The notes beneath the pieces are model-generated. The model was not told the origin of the DNA and ran no database searches. It worked only from the letters and a program-made list of their open reading frames with translations. A stretch of DNA of 64,000 nucleotides. Origin: an uncultured Muribaculaceae bacterium (GTDB taxonomy: Bacteria > Bacillota_I > Bacilli_A > RF39 > UBA660). The DNA is taken from positions 5,247-69,246 of the forward strand of contig CAZTRB010000001.1 in assembly GCA_964616485.1 (NCBI GenBank), read 5' to 3'. Positions 4,699-11,326 of this stretch are shown piece by piece. Position 1 is the first letter of the stretch. Each line of letters begins with the position of its first letter. Made by a program: the position numbers and the translations under genes.

Positions 4699-6426
4699 TT
4701 GATAACGAAGGGGCAAAAGATTAGTGATAGATATGAGATAATAAAAAACATTGGCGAAGGTGGAATGGCTAATGTTTATTTGGCCTTCGATGGAATCTTA
4801 AATAGAAAAGTAGCTATTAAAATCTTAAGAGGAGACTTGGCTACTGATGATAAATTTATTAGAAGATTTCAAAGAGAAGCGATAGCGGCATCTTCTTTAT
4901 CACATCCTAATATCGTCGAGATGTATGATGTTGGTGAAGATAATGGTGATTATTATATCGTTATGGAATATGTCGAAGGAAGGACTTTAAAGCAACTTCT
5001 TAAAAGAAGAGGAACTTTAACGATGTCCGAAGTAATCGATATAATGTTACAAGTGACTGATGGAATAGCTCATGCTCATGCTAGCTATATAATTCATCGT
5101 GATTTAAAACCTCAAAATATTATGATTACTGATGATGGTTCGATTAAGATAACTGACTTTGGTATAGCTATGGCTCTTAATTCGACCCAACTTACGCAGA
5201 CTAACTCAGTAATGGGATCTGTTCATTACTTACCACCAGAACAAGCGACGGGTAAGGGTTCGACGATAAAATCCGACATTTACTCGATGGGAATATTATT
5301 TTATGAACTTTTGACTGGGAAGCTTCCTTTTAAAGGAGATAATGCTGTTGAGATAGCTCTTAAACATATGAAAGATGAGATTCCACCACTTAGAAAGACT
5401 AACCCAGAATTTCCTCAGACATTAGAAAATATAATCTTAAAATCGACGGCTAAAAACCCTAAAAATAGATATGCTGACGTTAAAGAGATGCATGAAGATT
5501 TTAAGACATGTTTAGATGATAACAAAAAGAGCGTACCTAGGTACTTATATAAATATCCTGAACAAGAGGCAGATGAGAAAGATATAAAGTTAGATAATCT
5601 AAAAGATAAAGAGTTTGTCTCAGATCAAGTGGCAAAAGAAATAGTCGAAGATACTCCTAAAGCAAATGCTTTATTATGGATACTTGGAATCGTCTTCTTG
5701 ATCGGTCTTTCCGGACTAGGATATATTTTATACACGACCTTTAAAGGTACTCCTAACATCAAGGTACCAGATGTCGTTAATTTAACGGTAGAACAAGCGG
5801 AGAGAGCGCTTTTAAATGCCGGGTTTAAAGTAGAGAACGAGACTAAAAAAGTATCTGATAACGGCATAGAAAAAGGTAAAGTAGTTAGAACTGAACCGAC
5901 GGCAGGGCGTTTAAGACCACCAGGTTCATCCGTTACTATTTATGAATCGACTGGTAAAGACGATGTTTATACTATAGAAAACTATGTTGGACAAAATTAT
6001 AACATCGTTAAGACTAGGTTAGAAGAAGTTTACTTTATGGAGGTAACGATCGAGAAGAAAGATATCGAGATCGAAGAAGGAACGGATTTGAATTTAATCG
6101 TTGAACAAAGTATTAAAGTCGGAGAAGTAGTTACTATCTCTAAAGAAAATCCGATAAAGATAACGTTGTATGTACCAGATGCATATGAACTTTATCCAGA
6201 TTTTGTTTCTGAAGGATGGACAGTCGAAGAAGTAGAAATATTTGCCGAGAAATATGATTTAACATTAGAAATCAAATATGTCGTTTCTTCAGAACTTCCT
6301 ATCGGAACGATTACCAATCAATCTAGAAGTGGAAGAATAGTTAAAGGAGCTAGTTTCTCAATCACGGTTACTAAAGAACCAGATGATATAACTGGCCCAC
6401 CAGAAGAAGAGGAAGAGAGCCCTTAA
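4699..6426 (+). CDS. prkC: Hanks-type Ser/Thr kinase with a TM segment and three PASTA-like repeats (PrkC/IreK/StkP type)
   Basis: GEGGMANVY...VAIK, HRDLKPQN and DFG kinase motifs; TM segment LLWILGIVFLIGLSGLGYILY; three roughly 65-aa extracellular repeats. TTG start. Confidence 0.93.
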   Translation: MITKGQKISDRYEIIKNIGEGGMANVYLAFDGILNRKVAIKILRGDLATDDKFIRRFQREAIAASSLSHPNIVEMYDVGEDNGDYYIVMEYVEGRTLKQLLKRRGTLTMSEVIDIMLQVTDGIAHAHASYIIHRDLKPQNIMITDDGSIKITDFGIAMALNSTQLTQTNSVMGSVHYLPPEQATGKGSTIKSDIYSMGILFYELLTGKLPFKGDNAVEIALKHMKDEIPPLRKTNPEFPQTLENIILKSTAKNPKNRYADVKEMHEDFKTCLDDNKKSVPRYLYKYPEQEADEKDIKLDNLKDKEFVSDQVAKEIVEDTPKANALLWILGIVFLIGLSGLGYILYTTFKGTPNIKVPDVVNLTVEQAERALLNAGFKVENETKKVSDNGIEKGKVVRTEPTAGRLRPPGSSVTIYESTGKDDVYTIENYVGQNYNIVKTRLEEVYFMEVTIEKKDIEIEEGTDLNLIVEQSIKVGEVVTISKENPIKITLYVPDAYELYPDFVSEGWTVEEVEIFAEKYDLTLEIKYVVSSELPIGTITNQSRSGRIVKGASFSITVTKEPDDITGPPEEEEESP

Positions 6427-6434
6427 GGAGGTTT

Positions 6435-7274
6435 ATGCAAGGACAAATAATAAAAATAATAAGTAATTTATTTTATGTTTATCAAGACGATATTGTTTAT
6501 CCTTGTAGAAGTAGAGGACTTTTTCGTAATCAAAAGATTACTCCAGTAGTAGGAGATTACTGTATAATCGATAAAAAAAATAATTATATAATGGAAATAT
6601 TGCCTAGAAAAAACTTTTTAGTTAGACCACTAATCGCTAATATCGATCAAGGTCTTATTGTGACTAGTTTAAAAGAACCAGAGTTTTCTACAAATTTATT
6701 AGATAAATTTTTAGTCTTATTAGAATACAATAGTATTAAACCGATTATATGTTTAACTAAAAGAGATTTATTGACTAATAAAGATGAATTTTTAGATATA
6801 AAGAAATATTATGAAGATTTAGGGTACGATGTCATGTATAATGACGAGATAGAACGTTTAAAGAAAATCTTTAAAGATAAGACGACTGTCTTTACTGGAC
6901 AGACTGGTAGTGGGAAGTCATCTTTATTTAATCGTTTAGAACCTACGTTAGACTTTAAGACGGGTGAGATATCGAAAGCCTTAGGAAGAGGAAAACATAC
7001 GACTAGACACGTTGAATTAGTAATGCTCTTCGGTGGTAAATTAGTCGATACTCCAGGTTTTTCTAGTATCGATCTGTCGGATATTCCGGATTTAGGAATA
7101 AGGGACGGTTTCTTAGAATTTGAACGTTTCGAATGTCAATATCGTACTTGCATGCATACTGTAGAAACTACCTCTTTTTGTGGAGTAAAAGAAGCGGTCG
7201 AAGAAAATAAGATAATGGCTTCACGATACGATAACTATTTAAAATTTTTAAAGAACAACGAAAGGAGCTTTTAA
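6435..7274 (+). CDS. rsgA: Ribosome small-subunit-dependent GTPase RsgA (CpgA/YloQ)
   Basis: Circularly permuted GTPase: TKRD precedes GQTGSGKSS. C-terminal Zn motif CQYRTCMH...C. Synteny after prkC. Confidence 0.92.
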   Translation: MQGQIIKIISNLFYVYQDDIVYPCRSRGLFRNQKITPVVGDYCIIDKKNNYIMEILPRKNFLVRPLIANIDQGLIVTSLKEPEFSTNLLDKFLVLLEYNSIKPIICLTKRDLLTNKDEFLDIKKYYEDLGYDVMYNDEIERLKKIFKDKTTVFTGQTGSGKSSLFNRLEPTLDFKTGEISKALGRGKHTTRHVELVMLFGGKLVDTPGFSSIDLSDIPDLGIRDGFLEFERFECQYRTCMHTVETTSFCGVKEAVEENKIMASRYDNYLKFLKNNERSF

Positions 7275-7277
7275 CTT

Positions 7278-7937
7278 ATGAAAAAAGTATCAGTATCTTT
7301 TTTAGGAATAAAAAACCAACAAAAAGCCGTCGAGAGACTAGAAGCTAGTAATGCTGATTATATTCATGTCGATGTCATGGATGGAAGATTCGTTAAAGGT
7401 AGAAACAACCCTTATAAATTGTTGACGAAGATGTCAAAGACGATAAGCAAGAGACTAGACGTTCATTTAATGGATAAGAATCCTTTGAAAAACATAAACT
7501 ATTATGCTTCTTTAAACACCGAGTATATATCAGTTCATGTCGAACTTCCTTTGGTAGATAAGTATTTAGACTTAATAAAAGAGTATGGAATTAAGTGCGG
7601 CTTGGCTATACGTCCAGAGACGGACATCTCGATACTATTGCCATACTTATCAAAAGTAGATTTAATTCTCGTAATGAGTGTTAATCCGGGTAAGAGTGGT
7701 CAAAGCTTTATCGAAGACACTAAAGAGAAAGTATTTAAAATTAAAAAGTTAATAACTTCTAAGAAGCTAAAGACAAAGATCAGTGTCGATGGTGGAGTAA
7801 ATGATGAGACCGTTAAACAAATAAGCGATGCCGATATGATTATTAGTGGTAGTTATGTTTTTGGAGCAGAAGACATTAATGAGAGAATAAACACCTTAAA
7901 GAAAGAAGTTAAACCAAAGAAAAAGGTAAAAGAATAA
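7278..7937 (+). CDS. rpe: Ribulose-phosphate 3-epimerase family protein
   Basis: HVDVMDGRFV and VMSVNPG..GQ.F / DGG motifs; conserved position after rsgA. The N-terminus and the Lys-rich tail are somewhat divergent. Confidence 0.82.
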   Translation: MKKVSVSFLGIKNQQKAVERLEASNADYIHVDVMDGRFVKGRNNPYKLLTKMSKTISKRLDVHLMDKNPLKNINYYASLNTEYISVHVELPLVDKYLDLIKEYGIKCGLAIRPETDISILLPYLSKVDLILVMSVNPGKSGQSFIEDTKEKVFKIKKLITSKKLKTKISVDGGVNDETVKQISDADMIISGSYVFGAEDINERINTLKKEVKPKKKVKE

Positions 7938-7940
7938 ACA

Positions 7941-7970
7941 TTAAGACTTTTAATTATTAAGAGTCTTTTT
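7941..7970 (+). terminator. Rho-independent terminator closing the rlmN-rpe block
   Basis: TTAAGACTTTTAA / TTAAGAGTCTT imperfect hairpin followed by TTTTT. Confidence 0.65.
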
Positions 7971-7984
7971 AATTTATCTAATAG

Positions 7985-8013
7985 TTGCAAAAAAAAGGAC
8001 ATAAAGTTATAAT
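7985..8013 (+). promoter_or_regulatory. sigma-A type promoter of the paralog-pair unit
   Basis: TTGCAA (7985-7990), 17-nt spacer, TATAAT (8008-8013). Confidence 0.55.
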
Positions 8014-8036
8014 ATTAAGCCATGAGGTGAAAAGTT

Positions 8037-8972
8037 ATGGAAGCTGTTGGTAGTTATAACTATTATGAGAGAAAATTTTACGAGAAAGAAGTCACGATGA
8101 CTAAAAATTTAATATTAAATTTTTTAAATGGATTAACTAAAGAAGGAATCACTAAAATTGATTATGATGAACTAGTAAATTATATTGCAGCTGTTTTAAG
8201 AGATAGTAGATTTTCTGAATTGACTAGAATTAGAATACCGCATAAAACGACTTTTGATGATGGTAATTCTTTCTCTTTTTCAAAAATGGCTGTTGCTGAC
8301 ATTGAAAAATCTTTTTATACTATTCCGATGTATAATCAAGATAAAAAAGTTTTAATGTTAAATAAAGAAGGTTTAAATCAACATGTAAATTTATTTGACG
8401 AATTCGATTCTAAGCAACAAGATATCTTAGATAAAATCGTAAACAATTGGAAAGTTTATAAAGAACAACCGAATATACGCGTTGAAAAAAGAGGAATAGA
8501 CATTCAATATTATAATACTAATCCTAATAGGACGTATGCGATTTGTACCGATAGAAGGCATGGTATATTTGGTATATTTAATGGTTTAATAGCGAAAGAT
8601 AAACCGATTCGTAGTTGGGACTTATTTACCGATGGTAATGTTGTTGCCGATAGACTCTGTTTAGAAGCGTCTGCTAATTTTCACGAGTATTCTTTTGAAA
8701 ATCCTGAAAGAGAAGGGTTGCCGGGATTCAAAGCGAAGGCTAGTCGTTTCGTTTCAGTTCGTGATTCTGATTGGGTTGGAATTTCAGGGAAAGTTAATGG
8801 TAATTTAAAGCGTTTAGATGTATATGGGCATTTGACGGATAAAGATATTGAAGAGATTTCTCATCTTGTAGAAGATCCTAGTAAATTTACTACGATAGCA
8901 GCTCATGTACCGGCTGTTAAAGTTTTAACACCACAAACGAATAAAACGAAACGCGTAGGTTTTTATAGTTAG
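8037..8972 (+). CDS. Hypothetical cytoplasmic protein, paralog A (311 aa)
   Basis: GAGGTG SD 7 nt upstream. No TM segment or signal peptide. Homologous along its length to the next gene (shared R.WDLFTDGNV and DPSK motifs). Confidence 0.8.
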   Translation: MEAVGSYNYYERKFYEKEVTMTKNLILNFLNGLTKEGITKIDYDELVNYIAAVLRDSRFSELTRIRIPHKTTFDDGNSFSFSKMAVADIEKSFYTIPMYNQDKKVLMLNKEGLNQHVNLFDEFDSKQQDILDKIVNNWKVYKEQPNIRVEKRGIDIQYYNTNPNRTYAICTDRRHGIFGIFNGLIAKDKPIRSWDLFTDGNVVADRLCLEASANFHEYSFENPEREGLPGFKAKASRFVSVRDSDWVGISGKVNGNLKRLDVYGHLTDKDIEEISHLVEDPSKFTTIAAHVPAVKVLTPQTNKTKRVGFYS

Positions 8973-9023
8973 TTTGCCTGTATTAGTTAATTATTATGTT
9001 GTATAAAACAAATGGGGGATAAA

Positions 9024-9905
9024 ATGCGAGACAATTATGTATATTTTGCTAATAATGAAAAGGTTAGAGAGTTTATCCTGAGGTTTTTAGCGACTTTAAG
9101 TAAAGAGGAAGTTCGTCGTATTAATAGAAATGAACTTACTGATTATATCGTATATCTCATGAATGATGGTCGTTATGATTATCTAATGAGATTGCTTAAA
9201 CAACCGAGTAAAAAAATCGATAATACTAATGCTTACGCTTTTACTAAAAAAGCCATAAAAGGTATAATAAAAAGTAATTATTGTCGATCAGTTAATACAA
9301 AAGAAGGCGAGGTATTAATATTAGACGAGAAAACACTCGCAAGATATCGAAGAACTGTTAAAATGTTTGCTGATGATCATCAAAATACTTATAATAAAAT
9401 AGTCGACGACTGGAAATATCATAAAAAACCTAGAGAAAGAAAGATGTCGAAAAATGGAGTATCATTAATATTAAAAGCAGCACTACCTAACGACTCATAT
9501 ACTTTGTGTACGGAGGAGAGAAAAGGTTTGTTTGGTTTTTTTCTACCACAAGATAAAACAAAAATAAAGAGATGGGATTTATTCACCGATGGTAATGTGA
9601 TTCAAGGACCAGTGAGAAGTGCTTTTGGTAAGAAAGTATTAACGCTTAATCCTAGAGATTTTACGGAAGAAGATTTAAAAGCTAGGCAAGTTAAAGACGT
9701 TATTGTAAAATCTGCTGATTTTGTTGCAATGAGAGGTTATGTCGGTGATACTTTAACGAGCGCTTATGTATATACACCTTTATCAGGAAAGAAATTAGAC
9801 AGTGCTATTTCAATAATAACTGACCCATCTAAAGAAGAGATTCAAGTTGCTGATGAAGCTCCCTATGTCAAAACTTTAGGTCCTAAAATGCCTAGGAGAT
9901 TATAA
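9024..9905 (+). CDS. Hypothetical cytoplasmic protein, paralog B (293 aa from ATG 9024)
   Basis: The GGGGGA SD favours ATG 9024 over 9012. Shares the KRWDLFTDGNV and DPSKEE motifs and the N-terminal helix pattern with 8037-8972. Confidence 0.8.
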   Translation: MRDNYVYFANNEKVREFILRFLATLSKEEVRRINRNELTDYIVYLMNDGRYDYLMRLLKQPSKKIDNTNAYAFTKKAIKGIIKSNYCRSVNTKEGEVLILDEKTLARYRRTVKMFADDHQNTYNKIVDDWKYHKKPRERKMSKNGVSLILKAALPNDSYTLCTEERKGLFGFFLPQDKTKIKRWDLFTDGNVIQGPVRSAFGKKVLTLNPRDFTEEDLKARQVKDVIVKSADFVAMRGYVGDTLTSAYVYTPLSGKKLDSAISIITDPSKEEIQVADEAPYVKTLGPKMPRRL

Positions 9906-9936
9906 TTATTTATGGTTTTATTTAATAAAAGATACT

Positions 9937-9960
9937 AAAGGTACAGAAGTACCTTTTTAT
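9937..9960 (+). terminator. Rho-independent terminator after the paralog pair
   Basis: AAAGGTAC-agaa-GTACCTTT followed by T-rich sequence. Confidence 0.7.
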
Positions 9961-9999
9961 TATTGAAAATATTTGCTAAAATATAGAAGTGGTGATAAA

Positions 10000-10470
10000 A
10001 TGAAAAAAGCTTTTTCGATTGGCGTTATGGGCGTGTTTATTGATCAGGTTACTAAGATGTTTGTACTTGCTAAATTAAAATTAAATGACAGTGTTAGTAT
10101 AATTGCTAATTTTTTTAATTTGACTTATATTAAAAACACCGGTGGAGCTTTCGGTTTGTTTAGTAATGGTACTATTATTTTAGCGGTAATTAGTATCGCT
10201 TTTATATGTTATCTAGTTTATTATTTTTATAAATATAAATTAAATAGCAATTTATATCAGTTTATCTTAGGACTACTCCTAGCAGGAGTTATAGGTAATT
10301 TGATCGATCGTCTAGTTAAAGGATATGTCATCGATTTTTTAGACTTTAAAATATTCGGATATGATTTTCCGATATTTAACGTCGCCGATATCTTTGTCGT
10401 ATGTGGAATGTTATTGTTTATATTAGTTATTATGAAAGAAGGTGACGGTCTTGAAAGTAAAAGTCAGTAA
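10000..10470 (+). CDS. lspA: Lipoprotein signal peptidase II
   Basis: NTGGAFG and FNVADIF motifs in a 4-TM protein; lspA-rluD pairing as in B. subtilis. Confidence 0.92.
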   Translation: MKKAFSIGVMGVFIDQVTKMFVLAKLKLNDSVSIIANFFNLTYIKNTGGAFGLFSNGTIILAVISIAFICYLVYYFYKYKLNSNLYQFILGLLLAGVIGNLIDRLVKGYVIDFLDFKIFGYDFPIFNVADIFVVCGMLLFILVIMKEGDGLESKSQ

Positions 10471-11326
10471 TATTAGAATAGATCAATACTTAGTTGAAGA
10501 GTTAAATTTATCTAGAAGTAAGATTCAAAAGCTTCTTAAAGAAGAGAAAATATTGGTTAATAATTCTAAAGTTAATGCTAATTATATTGTGAAGTTAGAT
10601 GATGAGATAACGATAGTTACTTTAGACTTAGAACCTCCTAAATTAGAAGCTGAGAATATCAAGTTAGATGTTTTATATGAAGATGATTATCTAATGATAA
10701 TTAATAAGAAGAGTGGTATGGTCGTTCATCCTGCTCCGGGTAATTATTCAAAGACTTTAGTCAATGCTCTTTTATATGATAAGAAGCTAAGTAAGGGAGA
10801 GGAATATCGTCCAGGTATCGTTCATCGTTTAGATAAAGATACTTCTGGATTATTAATCGTTGCTAAAGACGATAAAACTCACGATCTTTTAAGTAAGATG
10901 TTAGCGAAACATAAGATCGAGAGAATCTATCACGCTCTTCTTAGTGGAGTCATTCCACATGAGACGGGGACGATAGATGCACCTATTGGTAGAAGTCAAA
11001 AGAATAGACAAAAGATGGATGTAACAGATATCAATAGTAAAGAGGCTATTACGCATTTTAAAGTCTTAAAGAGATTTACTGAAAACACTTTAGTAGAGTG
11101 TCGTTTAGAGACTGGTAGAACCCACCAAATAAGAGTTCATTTCTCTTATATTGGCTATCCGTTAATAAATGATCCTTTATATGGTAAAAGTAGAAAGACG
11201 ACTTCTTTCGGACAATTTCTTCATTCTAAAGAACTAAGGTTTATTCATCCGATAACGAAGAGAGAAATACACGTTGATTCTTCTTTACCAAATGAATTTA
11301 AAGACTATCTATCTACCTTAGAATAA
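10442..11326 (+). CDS. rluD: 23S rRNA pseudouridine synthase, RluD subfamily (S4 domain + RluA-family core)
   Basis: N-terminal S4-like RIDQYL...SRSKIQKLL and catalytic HRLDKDTSGLL. The start is ambiguous (GTG 10442 or TTG 10451). Confidence 0.9.
   Translation: MTVLKVKVSNIRIDQYLVEELNLSRSKIQKLLKEEKILVNNSKVNANYIVKLDDEITIVTLDLEPPKLEAENIKLDVLYEDDYLMIINKKSGMVVHPAPGNYSKTLVNALLYDKKLSKGEEYRPGIVHRLDKDTSGLLIVAKDDKTHDLLSKMLAKHKIERIYHALLSGVIPHETGTIDAPIGRSQKNRQKMDVTDINSKEAITHFKVLKRFTENTLVECRLETGRTHQIRVHFSYIGYPLINDPLYGKSRKTTSFGQFLHSKELRFIHPITKREIHVDSSLPNEFKDYLSTLE

Follow-up and report, generated by a model that had tools for sequence, protein, structure and literature searches.

The window analysed here, a 64,000-nucleotide stretch of contig CAZTRB010000001.1 (positions 5,247 to 69,246 of the forward strand) in the assembly GCA_964616485.1 of an uncultured Muribaculaceae bacterium, carries between its rpe and lspA genes a tandem pair of genes, here called A and B, to which attention had been drawn by an original prediction made from the sequence alone. 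The host genome is a 1.23-Mb metagenome-assembled genome (MAG), 98% complete, recovered from a bioreactor metagenome. Together with a third paralogue encoded elsewhere in this genome, A and B belong to a rare family that has no name. Its proteins are soluble and probably located in the cytoplasm, and in them a winged-helix (WH) module is followed by a C-terminal domain of ~150 residues that is without a sequence relative or solved-structure relative in the searches made. As found, the family is confined to one GTDB family of uncultured Bacilli with small genomes (~1 Mb).

The tandem pair and its expression signals

The features of the unit are the following, with positions counted in the window and all on the forward (+) strand.

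7943..7967, +, rpe terminator hairpin followed by a U-run (-8.8 kcal/mol, z -3.34), the upstream boundary of the A-B unit
7985..8013, +, sigma-70-like promoter TTGCAA-17-TATAAT, matching the consensus at 10/12 positions
8024..8029, +, ribosome-binding site GAGGTG of A, located by reading, 7 nt 5′ of the ATG
8037..8972, +, open reading frame (ORF) A, 311 aa
8037-8465, +, winged-helix module of A, residues ~1-143 (AlphaFold2, AF2, model)
8469-8936, +, all-beta domain of A, residues ~145-300 (AF2 model)
8616..8642, +, WDLFTDGNV motif in A
9024..9905, +, ORF B, 293 aa from the ATG at 9024 (297 aa from an in-frame ATG at 9012)
9573..9599, +, WDLFTDGNV motif in B
9937..9961, +, intrinsic terminator after B, an 8-bp stem with a 4-nt loop, then a T-run

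That two paralogous proteins of about 300 residues and low identity are encoded here in tandem was borne out: both ORFs are present, and their products are collinear from end to end in a BLASTP alignment with 31% identity over 280 residues (E 1e-43), a degree of paralogy that, judged from this alignment, is far above chance. For B the start at 9024 is favoured because GGGGGA stands at 9014-9019 and because the N-terminus of P0002, a relative from the database search described below, aligns at that position. The pair had also been credited with its own promoter and a terminator, and both were recovered; the promoter has the top score in the scan, level with three other 10/12 sites, and the terminator after B (hairpin at 9937-9956) folds with -10 kcal/mol (z -2.95). 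In the 51-nt spacer between A and B a terminator-like structure was sought and none was seen (z -0.5), so that A and B are probably read as a single bicistronic transcript.

The motifs quoted in the original prediction are all present, i.e., the N-terminal helices, the paired segments IVNNWK/IVDDWK and YAICTDRRHGIFGIF/YTLCTEERKGLFGFF, the WDLFTDGNV motif and the DPSK segment. The longer form R(S/R)WDLFTDGNV, said to be shared by the two proteins, holds for WDLFTDGNV itself, but the tryptophan is preceded by RS in A and by KR in B. At the level of DNA, positions 8613-8641 and 9570-9598, which code for (S/R)WDLFTDGNV, share 26 of 29 nucleotides (90%; repeat D1), as compared with only 31% identity for the whole proteins, a match that could stem from gene conversion over a short tract or else from very strong constraint. 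No transmembrane segment is seen in A or B, as had been predicted, the Kyte-Doolittle maximum being 0.65-0.76 over 19 residues.

The genomic slot

The order of genes at the locus, with families assigned by Pfam, is RsgA, Rpe (PF00834), A, B, LspA (PF01252) and a RluD-type pseudouridine synthase. The locus was compared with those of 16 other species representatives of the genus. The lspA-rluD block is present in all 16 of these congeners and rsgA-rpe lies immediately upstream of it in 11, in line with the claim that the pair sits at the junction of two conserved synteny blocks. In 15 of the 16, a 77-aa PRC-barrel gene (PF05239, YlmC/YmxH-like, 80-88% identity) directly precedes lspA, and A-B thus sits in the slot where congeners have this ylmC-like gene; the exception is G014 (L061), in which there is no PRC-barrel gene at this place and rpe abuts lspA. 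With the congener gene as a query, no PRC-barrel gene was found anywhere in the 98%-complete host genome. The idea that the beta domain of A and B is a derivative of the displaced ylmC was examined and discarded, since an hhalign comparison of the C-terminal domain profile with the YlmC profile gave a probability of 3%; a match to PF05239 was found in neither A, B nor the other members. Further downstream, the rluD-type gene begins with a GTG inside the end of lspA, so that the two genes overlap by 29 nt (window positions 10442-10470), an arrangement that is apparently kept in congeners.

Contigs of 150-320 nt that are identical to parts of A and B were found in wastewater and compost runs of other studies, so that both the pair and the organism that carries it occur in places other than the source sample. 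This comparison was made with Logan contigs, in which stretches without cover are uninformative. Among the public runs listed as containing the sequence, none is an RNA run.

The winged-helix module

A model of A was calculated with AF2 on a 13-sequence alignment and reached a predicted local distance difference test (pLDDT) of 83 and a predicted template modelling score (pTM) of 0.78. In this model, residues ~1-143 form a long N-terminal helix, a winged-helix unit and then two linker helices. The unit itself comprises strand S1 (residues 40-42), two helices (43-55 and 75-90) and a beta-hairpin wing (95-108), and it follows the H1-S1-H2-H3-S2-wing-S3 topology of the winged-helix fold. The structural matches (VIA) of the N-terminus are to winged-helix domains of many unrelated families. 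The modelled module is thus a winged helix at the level of the fold, with no particular family indicated, and the earlier suggestion of an N-terminus resembling a winged helix-turn-helix (wHTH) was correct to this extent.

The module is acidic, with an isoelectric point (pI) of 4.5-6.1, in 11 of 15 members, among them A (pI 5.7), and in the alignment the predicted recognition-helix region shows the lowest conservation and the most gaps. On the model, an acidic module with a poorly conserved recognition helix would make docking on a protein as plausible as binding to an operator.

The WH module is also found alone, in short proteins that align with it over 126 columns (hhalign probability 96.9%, E 1.6e-10). 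These fall into at least 164 clusters, none of which is named and none of which has a Pfam domain (alignment A10), and they carry a basic GPxLxKK tail that resembles the PxV(K/R)K of the full-length members. Short WH-only proteins of 144-222 aa at L036, L037, L039, L040, L042 and L043 are 71-85% identical across genera and all end in GPxLxKK. This cross-genus identity, combined with the mobile-gene neighbours of the short proteins (see below), suggests a recent horizontal spread.

The C-terminal beta domain

When residues ~145-300 were folded alone, AF2 returned an all-beta domain with one helix (pLDDT 81, pTM 0.78). A Foldseek search of the PDB, one of the checks that the original prediction had proposed, gave no match at E <= 0.001 with either the full model or the C-terminal model. 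Among the viral structures of BFVD only small generic WH proteins were matched, a profile search of PDB sequences returned chance rows only, and the ESM Atlas held no usable match for A or for one member of clade II (see below).

Within the family, the invariant or near-invariant positions of the beta domain are P-N-x-x-Y, (W)-x-L-x-T-D-G, (A/S)-x-(Y/F)-x-x-x-Q-G, a later T and a C-terminal P-x-V-(K/R); the family-wide core of the WDLFTDGNV motif is W-x-L-x-T-D-G. The original prediction had named, as what would speak against it, homologues that occur singly in unrelated contexts and lack the motif. Such single homologues do occur, in unrelated contexts, but the W-x-L-x-T-D-G core is conserved across the family.

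One match, P0006, was rejected. It is a 2356-aa Ig-repeat SLH protein with Big_9 repeats, and its match is weak and inflated by the repeats, amounts to ~29% identity over 76 residues and concerns A only; judged from the alignment, it would be due to chance or, at the very most, point to an Ig-like element.

Range of the family and age of the duplication

Searches with Pfam, NCBIfam, PHROGs and PADLOC gave no match for A or B, with PADLOC returning no family for either protein even at E <= 1, and no Pfam or NCBIfam family reached threshold among 39 members scanned singly. The earlier statement that a family cannot be assigned thus holds. A phmmer search over 1.84 billion representative proteins returned eight matches, namely A itself, P0002-P0005 and P0008 (276-334 aa), P0007 and the chance match P0006. 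P0007 is the third paralogue of the host genome, a protein of 290 aa with 25% identity to A, encoded on contig 12, where its gene stands alone between a glycosyltransferase gene and an unassigned 448-aa ORF.

A family profile built from 13 sequences was then used to search 401 genomes of the same GTDB family, and it matched in 33 of them. A full-length, single-copy member is present in ~12 of these 33 genomes, the N-terminal module only in ~17 (proteins of 144-325 aa), and the C-terminal domain only, as a protein of 141 aa, in one (G130). The profile had no match in ~350 genomes from 29 other families of the class, and a full-length member was found in none of the 16 congeners. A search of genome contigs with alignment A3 yielded 46 stretches that fitted the patterns, of which 0 encoded a relative, and the sole match to P0002 in metagenome contigs lay inside a helicase gene and was dismissed as a false positive. 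The named records with relatives are MAGs from mouse, rabbit and goat gut, labelled “uncultured Bacilli” or “Tenericutes”; one relative-bearing record is labelled uncultured Muribaculaceae. In one genome (G207:C5, L019), the member is broken by a single in-frame TAA, which leaves a 208-aa ORF without the N-terminal part of the WH module, and this member may be a pseudogene or, alternatively, make use of a new start.

In the maximum-likelihood tree the members fall into two clades, each with a support of 100/99. Clade I consists of A, B, the third paralogue, P0002-P0005 and P0008, and clade II of 19 rows, with a single gene in each genome that is known. A is sister to B plus P0002 (support 92/89), and since the latter two are 55% identical, the duplication that gave rise to A and B must predate the split between B and P0002. 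Read from this tree, the duplication is old, which agrees with the ancient origin that had been proposed for it.

Neighbourhoods of the relatives

A conserved partner gene was not found: the 19 loci examined have 115 neighbouring ORFs, and each Pfam family among these is present 3 times at most. Most full-length members lie between housekeeping genes, such as ftsW, whiA/rplI, alaS, hisS/aspS and mnmA. Mobile-element genes adjoin full-length members at L018 (a serine recombinase) and L067 (serine recombinases and an Abi_2 gene), and short WH-only members at L036 (a Mob_Pre relaxase) and at L032 and L035 (TnpV).

The L067 locus, in a mouse-gut Bacilli MAG, has at positions 5490-11194 a 592-aa large serine recombinase, the clade II member, the Abi_2 gene (E 1e-42), a 93-aa ORF and a second serine recombinase, an array that from its gene content looks like an integrated element; ScpA and ScpB are encoded just upstream of it. 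Directly 3′ of the member from goat caecum (L016/L073:5037-7257) there is a regulatory-looking module, consisting of a 349-aa protein with several helix-turn-helix (HTH)/Myb-like repeats and a sigma-70 region 4, a small sigma-70 region-2 protein, and a third ORF that appears by eye to be HNH endonuclease-like.

What the proteins may do

A and B are real genes, since their frames and motifs are maintained from genus to genus, their models were predicted with confidence and the unit has signals for expression. To judge from its distribution and sequences, the family behaves as a patchily distributed, fast-diverging, stand-alone accessory gene. The reading that we favour, tentatively and as a putative function only, is that the products are stand-alone WH adaptors or regulators to which the beta domain gives specificity, and that the pair goes back to an early duplication, after which the copies diverged. 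The gene would then be accessory and spread horizontally, and each of its products would work alone. The WH module would dock on a partner, which, given that most members have an acidic module, is as likely to be a protein as DNA, and the beta domain would be the specific sensing or oligomerising part, so that the protein acts as a regulator or an adaptor. The tandem pair would represent an old, lineage-specific duplication, the copies of which diverged in function without becoming an obligate heteromer; a sub-functionalised pair, also proposed originally, is possible.

Several observations weigh against this picture. The base composition of A-B is native, with a GC content equal to that of the flanks, and no att-like direct repeats that would mark an insertion flank the pair, so that a horizontal origin of this particular pair is undemonstrated. 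Most of the loci lie among housekeeping genes and have no mobile-element gene nearby, and the products of A and B may interact with each other. In addition, the WH modules of B (pI 9.5) and of the third paralogue (pI 9.1) are basic, which leaves room for DNA binding.

The last point leads to the alternative that fares best, a classical wHTH transcription factor, in which the WH module would bind an operator and the beta domain would bind a ligand or dimerise, with targets at its own locus or at distant ones. The WH topology is clear, two of the paralogues here have the basic module just mentioned, and in other genomes the gene is monocistronic and self-contained. However, the acidic module of 11 of the 15 members and the variable, gap-rich recognition-helix region are not what such a factor would be expected to show, WH domains that bind proteins (cullin WHB, the kleisin C-terminus, ESCRT-II, ORC) match equally well, and no conserved target operon adjoins the gene. 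We consider this explanation rather unlikely, if the most serious of the competitors.

The retention of both copies had been taken originally to indicate a heteromer. In its strict form, this idea is one of an obligate A-B heteromer in which each copy supplies half of the function. It is consistent with the tandem arrangement without a terminator between the genes, with a duplication that is older than the B/P0002 split and has nevertheless left both copies intact, and with N-terminal modules that are opposite in net charge (pI 5.7 in A and 9.5 in B). The argument is nonetheless weak, as full-length relatives are single-copy in 12 other genomes and lie in unrelated contexts, the third paralogue stands by itself on contig 12, and no neighbour is conserved at the 19 loci. 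The obligate heteromer is unlikely for these reasons.

Less probable still is a single-gene factor in conflicts with phages or mobile elements, acquired horizontally and serving in defence, exclusion or element maintenance. The patchy occurrence (33/401 genomes, and a full-length member in 0/16 congeners), the fast divergence with three paralogues in the present genome, the position of the L067 member between a large serine recombinase and an Abi_2 gene that is followed by a second recombinase, the recombinase next to the L018 member, and the short WH-only relatives beside Mob_Pre and TnpV all point in this direction. Against it stand the failure of PADLOC and PHROG to match, the absence of any catalytic or toxin-like motif, the housekeeping genes that flank most of the loci, and viral structural matches that are limited to the generic WH domain. 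The boldest extension of this thought would be that the C-terminal domain (PNxxY/WxLxTDG/QG/PxVK) is a new fold, that the family is a new class of stand-alone WH effectors in mobile-element or phage conflict of reduced-genome gut and bioreactor Bacilli, and that A, B and the third paralogue form a diversified, possibly interacting set; we offer it as speculation, and a doubtful one.

That the ORFs are spurious or decaying and without function, as the lack of annotation anywhere and the in-frame TAA in the relative from G207 might suggest, is scarcely credible in view of the intact frames and invariant motifs across genera, the confident AF2 models, a ribosome-binding site for each gene with a promoter and terminator on the unit, and the identical A/B fragments in wastewater and compost metagenomes of other studies.

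If the preferred reading of stand-alone adaptors or regulators holds, these proteins would make up a small superfamily in which a WH module is reused alone or fused to a beta domain without a solved-structure relative, limited to an uncultured, genome-reduced lineage of Bacilli in which each accessory gene that is kept likely matters. It would be reasonable to determine the structure of the C-terminal domain, and the invariant T-D-G and P-N-x-x-Y, which include T198, D199, N164 and Y167 of A, are targets for mutagenesis. The A-B pair is, in short, a well-delimited piece of protein “dark matter”, with no bearing on a long-standing open question and no sign of an unusual mechanism.

Comparison with known systems

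Among systems of known function, the anti-phage defence proteins of PADLOC-DB provide no model that A or B matches. The likeness of the WH module to LmuC of the Lamassu system (9ny5_C, 9hqx_d) is probably generic, and LmuC itself resembles HTH regulators (PMC12663957); unlike A and B, it has no C-terminal beta domain. No gene for the SMC-like LmuB or for the LmuA effector lies near A-B, the neighbours of which are rpe and lspA, and the 25 Pfam families that are listed most often for the 115 neighbouring ORFs include none that is SMC-like. A role of A or B as a Lamassu LmuC was rejected, there being neither an operon partner nor a PADLOC match.

With generic WH domains, such as the cullin WHB (7z8b_C), the ORC/Cdc6 WH (7jgr_G), the kleisin C-terminal WH domain and MarR/SarA, A and B have only the fold in common, and their module is without sequence similarity to any WH family of Pfam or NCBIfam. 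It differs from the generic domain in the link between helix 2 and helix 3, where there is an additional helix together with a loop modelled at low confidence (residues 57-74), and in being mostly acidic across the family. Compared with Ig-like beta-sandwiches (the chagasin-type 3m86_A, filamin and the Big_9 repeats of P0006), residues 235-305 of A are 26-31% identical to the P0006 repeats, a resemblance that is specific to A and inflated by the number of repeats, and no Pfam Ig family was matched.

A further comparison is with the short WH-only proteins of the same bacterial family, which are true homologues of the N-terminal module of A and B. They differ in having no beta domain, in being more conserved across genera and in lying more often beside Mob_Pre, TnpV or recombinase genes. 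What is known in A and B is the winged-helix fold, and what is new is the undescribed C-terminal domain that a WH protein carries here.
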